Source: Candidatus Falkowbacteria bacterium (GTDB lineage: Bacteria; Patescibacteriota; Patescibacteriia; CAIXNZ01). Taken from it: a stretch of DNA of 64,000 nt. The notes beneath the pieces were generated by a model, which saw only the letters and a program-made list of their open reading frames with translations, was not told the DNA's origin and ran no database searches. How positions within the stretch are numbered: position 1 is the first letter of the stretch; the number at the start of each line of letters is the position of its first letter. The DNA lies in the NCBI GenBank assembly GCA_963774955.1, contig CAVZGV010000006.1, positions 8,354 through 72,353 of the forward strand, given 5' to 3'. A program made the translations under genes and the position numbers. Shown piece after piece: positions 16,041 through 20,333 of the stretch.

Positions 16041-16206
16041 TTTTCATGATTAAAATTTAGCGGTTCAATATTCATTATAAATAAAAAAATCTGCGCATTA
16101 CCGCAGAAAATCAATAGCCATATGCTATTAGCCATTAGCTATAAACTAATGTGTAACCTCGATAGGATTTATGCTTTGCAGCCACCTATTGTCTGCGGTT
16201 AAATAC

Positions 16207-16234
16207 AGTATACCAGAAGCAAAAAATATGTCAA
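16207..16234 (-). promoter_or_regulatory. Sigma-70-like promoter upstream of rplJ-rplL (TTGACA-16-TATACT)
   Basis: The minus strand reads cTTGACAtattttttgcttctggTATACTg. Confidence 0.6.
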
Positions 16235-17721: not shown

Positions 17722-18405
17722 TCAGGTCTGTTTCATCCTGATTCCCTCAGGCTTATAATCCAGAAATTTAAATCTCTTACGAAATAATTCATCTAAAACA
17801 TAAGCTGCGTTGCTTGCATATGAACCGTAATTTTTCACAACTTCAGCCAGCTGTTTTACTTTGTCCGCCCAAACCTTCTTAGTTTCCGGATCTATGCGAA
17901 TAACCAGCAGGACTTCGCACAAATCAACAATTGCCTTTTGCCTATACTCTGCTTCATCTTTAATACAGCCTTTCCAGTGAGGGCTAATCTTCAGCTCCTG
18001 ACAATCTTTAAAAAGCAATTCCAACAACCGTTGGGCAGGATCAAGATCTGGTTCTGGTCCTATGATTATCGGGTTATCAATAGGCCTTATACACATGTAA
18101 TTATCACAGGTGTCTTCAGTTAGGTTTAAAAGCTGCCCGCACCCAGGACACTTTTGAGTCAAGTTTGGGAAGAGCTTTTTACCTTCGGCTGACATGGGTT
18201 CACTGTTAAATTCTTCATCTCCACCATCCCATTGCAGAATAAAATATGGCCGGCCATCCTTAGCATACTCAACGTATTCAGTATAATAATACTTAGTTGA
18301 GTTTGGACCAGGCATAGCTCCCATTTTATAACAGGCTGAACTATACTTATAACTCCTTCCTATCTTTTTCATTTTCTTCCTCCCTTTTTGTTTGGTACTA
18401 AACAA
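17722..18405 (-). CDS. Hypothetical 227-aa protein with CxxC…C cluster (GC-elevated island)
   Basis: ORF. Contains …KCPGCGQLLNLTEDTCDNYMC…. Confidence 0.4.
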   Translation of the reverse strand: MFSTKQKGRKKMKKIGRSYKYSSACYKMGAMPGPNSTKYYYTEYVEYAKDGRPYFILQWDGGDEEFNSEPMSAEGKKLFPNLTQKCPGCGQLLNLTEDTCDNYMCIRPIDNPIIIGPEPDLDPAQRLLELLFKDCQELKISPHWKGCIKDEAEYRQKAIVDLCEVLLVIRIDPETKKVWADKVKQLAEVVKNYGSYASNAAYVLDELFRKRFKFLDYKPEGIRMKQT

Positions 18406-18410
18406 ACTTA

Positions 18411-19466
18411 CTACCTTAACTCAATTACCTGTTCCCAAGGATAATTTGAGTTACTAAAATGACCGTTTTTGGCCGTATCCAAGTAGATTGGCTGGCGCAG
18501 ATCTAATTTCTCAATTATAGCCAAGGGACGAAAATCAAATTTTTGTCTGACTAAATCAGTCAATTTCTGATCATAACCGTTTTCAGTTTCCACGATAACC
18601 ATCAAAGGCTCAGCTTTACCAATAGCATAAGCCACGCTGACCAGGCATTTTTTAGCCAAACCATTAGCCACCAGATTTTTAGCCACGTAGCGGCAGTAAT
18701 AAGCGGCTGAACGGTCAACTTTTGACGGATCTTTGCCTGAGAAAGCGCCACCGCCATGAGGCATCAAACCGCAATAGGTATCAACCATTATTTTGCGCCC
18801 GGTTAAACCTGTATCTGCTTCAAAACCGCCCAATTCAAATTTACCGGTCGGATTAATTAAAAATTCCACATCACTTAAATCCTCAACCAAGGTCGGCAAA
18901 AACTTTTTGATGATTAGAGACTTTAATTCATCTTGTTCAATATCTTTATCGTGCTGAACAGAAATCAAAATTGTTTTTAACTTATTACCCTGCAAAGTTA
19001 TTTGGGCTTTACCATCTGGTTTTAACCATGCGAACTCAGGATTATGTCTCCTGAATTCAGCTAGCGCCTTGGTAATTTTATGCACCAAAACAATTTCCTT
19101 AGGCAAAAATTCAGGAGTTTCGTCAGTGGCAAAACCATACATAATACCCTGATCTCCGGCTCCGCCAGTATCCACGCCTTGGGCAATATCAAGCGATTGT
19201 TTTTCTATTCTAGTTATAATTTCCAAATCCTCATGATAGCCAATATCTTTATAGACCCTTTGGACAATCTCAATCGGATTAACATTTCCTTTGGAAGTAA
19301 CTTCACCGCCAATGACCAAAAGTCCATGGCAGCCGAATGTTTCAATTGCTACTCGTGAATTTGGATCCTGCGCCAAATAAGCGTCTAAAATCGCATCGGA
19401 AATCTGGTCGCAGACTTTGTCAGGATGACCATCTGTCACCGATTCTACAGTAATAAATTTTTCCAT
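18411..19466 (-). CDS. metK: S-adenosylmethionine synthetase (start at MEKFITVES)
   Basis: Contains ESVTDGHPDKVCDQISDAILDA, a GGGAFSGKD P-loop, and a MetK C-terminal domain. Confidence 0.9.
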   Translation of the reverse strand: MEKFITVESVTDGHPDKVCDQISDAILDAYLAQDPNSRVAIETFGCHGLLVIGGEVTSKGNVNPIEIVQRVYKDIGYHEDLEIITRIEKQSLDIAQGVDTGGAGDQGIMYGFATDETPEFLPKEIVLVHKITKALAEFRRHNPEFAWLKPDGKAQITLQGNKLKTILISVQHDKDIEQDELKSLIIKKFLPTLVEDLSDVEFLINPTGKFELGGFEADTGLTGRKIMVDTYCGLMPHGGGAFSGKDPSKVDRSAAYYCRYVAKNLVANGLAKKCLVSVAYAIGKAEPLMVIVETENGYDQKLTDLVRQKFDFRPLAIIEKLDLRQPIYLDTAKNGHFSNSNYPWEQVIELR

Positions 19467-19485
19467 AAAGTATATGTTAATAATT

Positions 19486-19648
19486 AAAAAACTCTTTCCC
19501 AACGAGGAAAGAGCTAAAATATAAAATTATTCATCTTTCCCTTGCGGGCAGGATTTAGCACCTTTTCCTCCTTCGCTAAAACTTAGGAGGATAGGTTGCT
19601 GCATAATTTAACGGGCCTGTTCCCTGCTATGCTCTTGATAATTTATAT
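19486..19648 (-). promoter_or_regulatory. SAM-I (S-box) riboswitch, proximal copy, with intrinsic terminator (19486..19517)
   Basis: The minus strand reads AAUUAUCAAGAGCAUAGCAGGGAACAGGCCCGUU…GCAACC…AAGGUGCUAAAUCCUGC…GAAAGAUGAAUAAU. It is followed by AGCUCUUUCCUCGUUGGGAAAGAGUUUUUU, and the metK ATG lies 20 nt downstream. Confidence 0.8.
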
Positions 19649-19667
19649 TCAATTGTTAAAGGACTGC

Positions 19668-19835
19668 TATTAAAAACAAAAAATCTTACACGCTAGCTGG
19701 GGTAAGATCTAAATATATTACTTATTATCTTCCCCCGCGTTGCGAGGCTGAATTTAGCACCTTATGGCCAAAAACCACAGGTTGCTGGTGAGCTTGTAAC
19801 GGGTCAGTTCCCTTGCCCACTCTCTGGATAATGAT
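19668..19835 (-). promoter_or_regulatory. SAM-I (S-box) riboswitch, distal copy, with its own terminator (19683..19715)
   Basis: The minus strand reads UUAUCCAGAGAGUGGGCAAGGGAACUGACCCGUUACAAGCUCACCAGCAACC…AAGGUGCUAAAUUCAGCC…GGGGGAAGAUAA. It is followed by AUCUUACCCCAGCUAGCGUGUAAGAUUUUUUGUUUUU. Confidence 0.85.
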
Positions 19836-19859
19836 TATTCAATTTTTAACTATGATTAC

Positions 19860-19888
19860 ATCTTAGCATATCTGAAGAAAAAAGTCAA
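19860..19888 (-). promoter_or_regulatory. Promoter for riboswitch-metK transcript (TTGACT-17-TAAGAT)
   Basis: The minus strand reads cTTGACTtttttcttcagatatgcTAAGATg. Confidence 0.55.
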
Positions 19889-19901
19889 GATACAAATGAT
19901 A

Positions 19902-19935
19902 AAAAAATCCCCACCGTGTCACGGCGAGGATTGAA
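19902..19935 (-). terminator. Intrinsic terminator (copy A of a repeated terminator-promoter module)
   Basis: The minus strand reads ATCCTCGCCGTGACACGGTGGGGATTTTTTTATC. Confidence 0.6.
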
Positions 19936-19946
19936 CATTATTTTTG

Positions 19947-20333
19947 TTAAAATCCTTCTTGTTCCAAATAAACTTCCATTGGAATTGCCGCCAGCATTCT
20001 GGCAAATTCCCGGAAATCCGGCTTACCGGTGCACACAAGCAACGCCTTGAGAGTAATGTCGCTTGGCTGGCAATGATTAAGTTCAGCCAGGATCCTTTTC
20101 ACCAGATCCAAGTTAAACTGGCTGACAAAGGCTTCAAATTCCTTGGGCCAATGCTGCCGCTGGATAACGAAATCTTTACTGACAACTCGTAAAGAGCCGT
20201 AATTCATGGCAATCAGGGCCTGATGCATGTCAGGATCAACTGTGATAAGCACAGTAGGCCCGTCAATGCTCTCAAATTCAACTGAAATCTGCTTGCCAGG
20301 CTTGAGAACCTGATCACGATATTCGTAAATCAT
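19947..20333 (-). CDS. Hypothetical 128-aa protein
   Basis: ORF flanked by a promoter and terminator modules. Confidence 0.45.
   Translation of the reverse strand: MIYEYRDQVLKPGKQISVEFESIDGPTVLITVDPDMHQALIAMNYGSLRVVSKDFVIQRQHWPKEFEAFVSQFNLDLVKRILAELNHCQPSDITLKALLVCTGKPDFREFARMLAAIPMEVYLEQEGF

Follow-up and report, generated by a model that had tools for sequence, protein, structure and literature searches.

How many SAM-sensing switches control metK, the S-adenosylmethionine (SAM) synthetase gene, in a Candidatus Falkowbacteria bacterium, and is each of them functional? The question is raised by a 64 kb stretch of contig CAVZGV010000006.1 (hereafter the window, meaning that stretch at its full length), in which the first-pass annotation had placed two tandem SAM-I riboswitches, each with its own terminator, in the metK leader. 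Our analysis upheld that assignment: the leader holds two matches to the Rfam family RF00162, each followed by an antiterminator/terminator pair and a U run. In our judgement, metK is very probably controlled by two complete, independent OFF switches in series, each triggered by SAM and acting through transcription termination. The case is a clade-specific tandem SAM-I metK leader in Patescibacteria, conserved in at least three species, and its kind is already known. On the minus strand, the leader comprises a promoter-like site, aptamer 1, a hairpin with a U run, a linker, aptamer 2, a second hairpin with a U run, and the ATG. The promoter, aptamers, terminators and hallmark SAM-I strings quoted in the first-pass annotation were all found in their places on that strand. 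The downstream gene, annotated as metK, is indeed metK (18411..19466, minus strand; 351 amino acids), as it matches TIGR01034 with 432.6 bits against a cutoff of 309.4. Its start at the ATG at 19466 is supported by homologue alignments that begin at residues 1-3.

The whole window was scanned with Rfam models at gathering thresholds, which for RF00162 is 44.4 bits. Three matches were returned, one to an L10 leader and two to RF00162 (SAM-I), and no further SAM match was present in the 64 kb. Aptamer 1 (19834..19722, minus strand) scored 54.2 bits (E = 1e-9) and aptamer 2 (19644..19528, minus strand) 55.4 bits (E = 4.5e-10), so that both regions passed the score check that the annotation had proposed. 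Both matches cover model positions 1-108 of 108. The aptamers share a strand, lie 77 nucleotides (nt) apart, and are flanked by the promoter-like site on one side and the metK ATG on the other. Aptamer 1 has the P1-P4 four-way junction and the pseudoknot CUGA:UCAG. Aptamer 2, also with P1-P4, has a long P3, a P4 of 3 bp, and the pseudoknot CAGG:CCUG. The helices P1, P2 (a/b), P3 and P4 constitute the minimum free energy (MFE) fold of each window aptamer taken alone, with an MFE z of -2.8 for aptamer 2. The SAM-I core, formed by AUC.AGAG (P1/J1-2), GCAACC and GGUGC (P3), and AGAU (the 3' strand of P1), is found in both copies. Both also keep all 23 invariant columns of an alignment of 28 Patescibacteria SAM-I sequences. 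In P2 of each aptamer, an asymmetric internal loop has the place and size expected for a kink-turn (AA/GUUACAA in aptamer 1, region 19788-19813; CA/GUUAAA in aptamer 2, region 19601-19626).

Each aptamer is followed by a terminator and a mutually exclusive antiterminator of its own, and both platforms are conserved in the two relatives described below. In unit 1, antiterminator 1 (19699..19736, minus strand) pairs GGGGGAAGAU (19736-19727), which comprises the 3' strands of P4 and P1, with AUCUUACCCC (19708-19699). Terminator 1 (19672..19710, minus strand) is formed by AGAUCUUAC and GUAAGAUUU (19710-19702 and 19689-19681) around a 12-nt loop, with U6 (19683-19678), a G, and U5. The unconstrained MFE fold of unit 1 was the antiterminator state (-44.3 kcal/mol). 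When P1 was forced to pair, so as to mimic the SAM-bound state, the fold gave the terminator 1 hairpin followed by U6 (-39.6 kcal/mol). Taken alone, the antiterminator of unit 1 had -12.8 kcal/mol versus -6.5 kcal/mol for its terminator. In unit 2, antiterminator 2 (19506..19540, minus strand) pairs GGAAAGA (19540-19534) with UCUUUCC (19512-19506). Terminator 2 (19486..19515, minus strand) has an 11-bp stem, AGCUCUUUCCU/UGGGAAAGAGUU, a 4-nt loop, and U6 (19491-19486); the terminator scan found it as AGCUCUUUCC-UCGU-UGGGAAAGAGUU with its U run at 19515..19490. Without the terminator 3' strand, the antiterminator was the MFE fold of unit 2; once that strand was added, the MFE fold contained the aptamer and the terminator (-48.0 kcal/mol). 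Here the isolated terminator had -13.3 kcal/mol versus -6.3 kcal/mol for the antiterminator. According to these predicted folds, each unit can form one or the other of two mutually exclusive pairings, as is typical of a transcriptional OFF switch. Thermodynamically, unit 1 would lean ON and unit 2 OFF, and the latter would need kinetic, co-transcriptional control.

The tandem is kept in the closest relatives. The exact window MetK sequence was found on one other contig only (Logan ERR12035938, 8.6 kb), and a protein search gave three closer MetK sequences, with 81% (L161), 77% (L162) and 70% (L163) identity. L161 is GCA_042568725.1 (JBHPIV010000007.1), labelled "Patescibacteria group bacterium"; it has RF00162 matches at 2300-2423 (55.6 bits) and 2642-2783 (54.5 bits), followed by metK at 2887. 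L162 is a 1.6 kb sequence that starts within aptamer 1 and continues through terminator 1, aptamer 2, terminator 2 and metK. L163 is cut inside its sole visible aptamer and is thus uninformative on the tandem. The leaders of the window, L161 and L162 are alignable between the promoter block (TTGAC...GATATGCTA) and the ATG. The substitutions in the unit 2 platform of L162 keep both pairings, GGGAGAGAU with AUCUUUUCC and AUCUUUUCC with GGAGGGAU. Between the full units of L161 (2480-2600) we also observed a partial third copy, which comprises aptamer 1 from P3 onwards (its 3' half) and the start of the platform. It is the remnant of yet another duplication within this leader.

The helices of the two window aptamers were compared with a hand-made helix table in which every pair was checked by code. 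Pair counting on the model-fitted alignment was dropped, as P2a was off by one column between the copies and the P3 and P4 inserts were unaligned. The table holds 31 pairs, 30 of which are canonical in both aptamers. Eighteen pairs are identical, three changed on one side and still pair, nine changed on both sides and nevertheless pair, and one is non-canonical. The annotation had named failure of the P1-P4 helices to form as grounds for doubt; both copies do form these helices, and compensatory changes distinguish one copy from the other. In all five full aptamers of the clade, P2a, distal P3 and P4 differ in sequence and are always helical. The pseudoknot between the P2 loop and J3/4 has four canonical pairs in each of the five (CUGA:UCAG, CAGG:CCUG, CUGG:CCAG, CUAG:CUAG and CGGA:UUCG). 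Because the tandem is kept in relatives and the helices carry two-sided compensatory changes, both units look maintained by selection. As far as sequence comparison can tell, the pattern is that expected of two functional copies, and not of one live and one dead copy; the L161 relic would illustrate how an unselected copy appears.

The flanks of the window units suggest how the pair arose. Upstream, the two units share TTAA(A/C)AATTGAATA at 13 of 14 positions, a likeness reached in 1 of 2000 shuffles (p ~0.0005). Downstream, they share ATAT.TTTAG.TCTT.CC, with 45 of 2000 shuffles as high (p ~0.02). This likeness fits a duplication of the whole unit, platform included, and the duplication likely preceded the split of the three species. 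We thus propose that the whole unit was probably duplicated in tandem in the ancestor of a small clade of Patescibacteria and that the arrangement has persisted from then on.

Several observations weigh against two working switches of such an origin. The duplication is argued solely from short flank similarity within the window, and the flanks of the two L161 units are not significantly alike. A neighbor-joining tree of 70 aptamer cores, built as a test of whether the two units are sisters, was uninformative, with nearest neighbors only 63-76% identical and scattered. In aptamer 2, P1 comprises just 5 canonical pairs, one G.U among them. In P2 of both window aptamers, the kink-turn is non-canonical, as the tandem G.A/A.G signature is absent; the same signature was missing at that register in 22 of 59 Patescibacteria aptamers, single-copy ones included, by a crude parse. 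Terminator 1 is weak on paper (-6.5 kcal/mol as above), and it failed a generic terminator scan because of its long loop and only 2 G-C pairs. Aptamer 2 of L162 scored 43.2 bits, 1.2 bits under the gathering score. The tandem is absent from the ~160 more distant loci described below; two copies are therefore clearly not required for metK control in the phylum, and single copies suffice in all more distant relatives. Together with the partial third copy of L161, which demonstrates that duplicates in this leader do decay, the kink-turn, terminator 1, L162 and single-copy observations speak for an arrangement in which only one unit works and the other is a decaying duplicate that has lost either SAM binding or transcription termination. 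We regard this as unlikely. The two aptamers of the window and the two of L161 match the model at full length and exceed the gathering score, and both units with both terminators have been kept over three species whose MetK sequences diverged by 19-23%. Moreover, neutral decay would break helices, as it did in the L161 relic, whereas nine two-sided changes in the window pair are compensatory. We therefore retain two working switches in series as the preferred interpretation.

A series of two switches presupposes that one transcript passes both. The promoter-like site (19860..19888, minus strand) has a -35 element TTGACT (19888-19883), a 17-nt spacer, and a TG-extended -10 element TAAGAT (19865-19860). 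With 9 of 12 matches, it was the sole such site in 19300-20100; shuffles gave 2.0 promoter-like sites on average, so the window site alone is not significant. At the corresponding place, L161 has TTGACA-17-TATACT, with conservation of the block GATATGCTA. Terminator 1 and aptamer 2 are separated by a linker of ~27 nt, and the promoter scan found no promoter-like site between units 1 and 2. A leader motif, TTAAAAATTGAATA (19836..19849, minus strand), lies just 5' of aptamer 1, and 13 of its 14 bases are the same in a second copy, TTAACAATTGAATA (19646..19659, minus strand), located in the linker before aptamer 2. Four of the five clade units have a shorter form, TTAA(A/C)AA(T/C)T, located 7-12 nt 5' of P1 and outside the Rfam model. 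These are both window units, L161 aptamer 1 (2278-2287) and L162 aptamer 2 (117-125); upstream of L161 aptamer 2, only ACAATT is left of the motif.

The AT-rich linker contains TTGAAT- and TATAAA-like hexamers, which might indicate that unit 2 and metK have a promoter of their own within the linker, with unit 1 merely attenuating read-through from upstream. Their spacing is unusable, and the promoter scan gave only 19888..19860 on the minus strand. The linker motif also occurs downstream of the -10 hexamer of unit 1, and thus within the transcribed leader. In addition, the upstream gene ends in a strong terminator of its own (19932..19906). Two separate transcripts are consequently extremely unlikely, and a single transcript through both units remains our preferred arrangement.

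The two platforms differ in how strongly they are conserved. Terminator 1 is nearly identical in L161 and L162 (0 of 2000 shuffles scored as high). Likewise, no shuffle among 2000 matched the conservation of the unit 1 platform across the three species; for unit 2, 29 and 185 of 2000 did. A platform of unit 1 so much more conserved than that of unit 2 could mean that unit 1 has a second job. A ~175-nt RNA ended at terminator 1 would accumulate at high SAM and act in trans, while unit 2 would exert the cis control of metK. SreA and SreB of Listeria are terminated SAM riboswitches that act in trans as small regulatory RNAs, and any transcription-terminating riboswitch releases a stable structured RNA. 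Nonetheless, a platform whose strands must satisfy two alternative pairings would be expected to be highly conserved in any case, and nothing requires an extra role. We consider such a division of labor highly improbable and return to two cis-acting switches.

We propose that these switches would operate as follows. A single transcript would start ~20 nt upstream of aptamer 1 and pass both units before metK. At low SAM, the 3' strands of P4 and P1 would pair with the 5' strand of the terminator, forming the antiterminator, and the polymerase would read through. With SAM bound, the four-way junction and P1 would be locked and the antiterminator strand withheld; the terminator hairpin followed by U6 would then form, and transcription would stop. 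Because two checkpoints in series multiply, overall read-through would be the product of both; less transcription would leak through at high SAM, and the response would be steeper ("pseudo-cooperative"). By calculation, a change from 90% to 10% expression would need a ~40-fold ligand range for two equal, independent switches and an 81-fold range for one switch. The steeper, more digital response to SAM suggested in the first-pass annotation is thus an inference from other tandem riboswitches combined with simple arithmetic.

Control at the level of translation appears unlikely. The metK ATG is 20 nt past the U run of terminator 2. Neither this interval (19467-19486) nor the corresponding segments of L161 (2868-2886) and L162 (326-345) contain a purine run resembling a Shine-Dalgarno sequence. 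Masking of a ribosome-binding site is disfavored because of this lack of any such run to mask. The segment from the terminator 2 U run to the ATG is nearly pure A/T and contains UUAUUAA.

Since unit 1 is predicted to be biased ON and unit 2 OFF, the two could have different SAM set-points or time windows. This leads to a bolder proposal, which we hold only tentatively and think rather improbable: the metK leader of this clade may be a repeatedly duplicating module whose two surviving units are tuned differently and are not redundant. If that were true, the clade would be a natural series of tandem riboswitch birth, tuning and partial loss, in bacteria with almost no other regulators.

How exceptional the tandem is within the phylum was judged from 160 metK loci, 80 from genomes and 80 from metagenomes, with MetK proteins 57-66% identical to that of the window. 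These relatives are metagenome-assembled genomes (MAGs) of Patescibacteria, or the Candidate Phyla Radiation (CPR), including Staskawiczbacteria, Moranbacteria, Liptonbacteria, Sungbacteria and others. At Rfam gathering thresholds, 31 of the 80 genome loci showed one SAM-I aptamer upstream of metK, and none showed two. We also built a covariance model, R1, from 28 Patescibacteria SAM-I aptamers; its RNAalifold consensus (17 pairs) lacks P2a and P4, and the model was used for detection only and not as structural evidence. With R1, loci having one SAM-I element ahead of metK numbered 54 of 80 for genomes and 49 of 80 for metagenomes. Roughly two thirds of the ~160 loci thus have a lone SAM-I upstream of metK, and many of these aptamers score under the Rfam gathering threshold but well with R1. 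As many aptamers fall below that score and are well scored by the phylum-specific model, standard annotation probably under-calls SAM-I in Patescibacteria. According to the survey of the 160 loci, one SAM-I ahead of metK is the common and ancestral condition in the phylum, and the tandem is exceptional. The P2 kink-turn variant of the window aptamers was also observed in single-copy Patescibacteria aptamers, e.g. at L037, L097 and L118.

Two sets of candidates for further tandems were rejected. Nine loci with a gap of 190-434 nt between the aptamer and metK (L022, L135, L034, L007, L145, L062, L056, L046 and L041) gave no hidden second aptamer in a permissive Rfam scan (E <= 0.5). At L113 (Ga0172379_10002556), two R1 matches turned out to be one aptamer (2049-2432) split by an insertion of ~270 nt in P2 (2086-2357). 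The insertion starts with GGTCATG and ends with CATGACC, which are either a terminal inverted repeat or a closing stem, and it matched no Rfam family at E <= 0.5. It could be an element resembling a miniature inverted-repeat transposable element (MITE) that kills the switch, or a structured insert tolerated by P2. Near metK we also observed a DUF3800-II RNA (72.8 bits; L019, 1436-1499) and, on the opposite strand, a flavin mononucleotide (FMN) riboswitch (70.8 bits; L045, 1580-1724).

As reported by Sherlock et al. 2022 (RNA Biol 19:1059, PMC9481103), SAM-I occurs in 164 double arrangements and 1 triple arrangement, and the authors class tandem SAM-I as "pseudo-cooperative, multiple expression platforms". 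A 2025 survey (PMC12452182) adds further tandem SAM riboswitches and reports that tandem riboswitches in general are enriched in Bacillota; its main text makes no mention of Patescibacteria or metK. The remark in the first-pass annotation that tandems are uncommon for SAM-I accordingly holds only in proportion, since both papers had already catalogued such arrangements. Like the catalogued tandems (PMC9481103), the window leader has two complete aptamers with intrinsic terminators of their own, acting as OFF switches for the same ligand. It differs in its Patescibacteria/CPR host and in metK as the controlled gene, and such cases may be among the 164. Single SAM-I metK leaders, as in Bacillus subtilis and most Patescibacteria studied here, have the same aptamer family, gene and terminator/antiterminator logic, whereas two consecutive units are present in the window and in its two closest relatives.

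Other tandem riboswitches offer partial parallels. The tandem thiamine pyrophosphate (TPP) riboswitch of Bacillus anthracis likewise consists of two independent OFF switches in series for one ligand. As summarized in PMC9481103, the work of Welz and Breaker (2007) on it is the experimental example of a response that steepens although true cooperativity is absent. The ligand and aptamer class are different, and the TPP case is experimental, whereas the window case is known from sequence. In "Candidatus Pelagibacter ubique", two SAM sensors, SAM-II and SAM-V, also share one leader in a streamlined genome. There, two aptamer classes act first on termination and then on translation; in the window both aptamers are SAM-I, both have terminators, and metK has no Shine-Dalgarno-like sequence to mask. 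The tandem glycine riboswitch, too, has two homologous aptamers for one ligand. However, its aptamers share one platform and dock with each other, whereas each window aptamer has its own platform and nothing suggests a contact between them. In a limited literature search, we found no paper describing natural riboswitches in Patescibacteria, CPR or Parcubacteria. A 2024 perspective (PMC11665869) names riboswitches as promising tool candidates for these bacteria, citing synthetic ones.

Directly after metK lies an open reading frame (ORF) of 227 amino acids (17722-18405, minus strand; 216 amino acids as called on the Logan contig). It had no NCBIfam match and is not present after metK in L161. 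This ORF may be co-transcribed with metK and hence also be controlled by SAM. The L10 leader mentioned above (RF00557, 59.9 bits; 16073-16216, minus strand) lies upstream of rplJ, and L161 and L162 retain the neighborhood from metK to the L10 operon. An archaeal-type UMP (uridine monophosphate) kinase (pyrH) and a stand-alone AlaX-like editing domain are also encoded in the window. Both genes, along with the Patescibacteria/CPR MAGs as metK relatives, fit the reduced genome assumed in the first-pass annotation.

The proposed mechanism is ordinary, the comparative support for the case is good, and the case leaves what is known of SAM-I or of tandem riboswitch mechanism unchanged. The three-species set, together with the L161 relic, constitutes a compact data set on the origin of tandem riboswitches. 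Because SAM-I before metK is common in the phylum, native Patescibacteria riboswitches could serve as expression tools in these hard-to-engineer bacteria. A stripped-down genome here devotes ~400 nt of leader to a double checkpoint on SAM synthetase, and such an expense in so small a genome suggests that tight SAM homeostasis matters for these bacteria.

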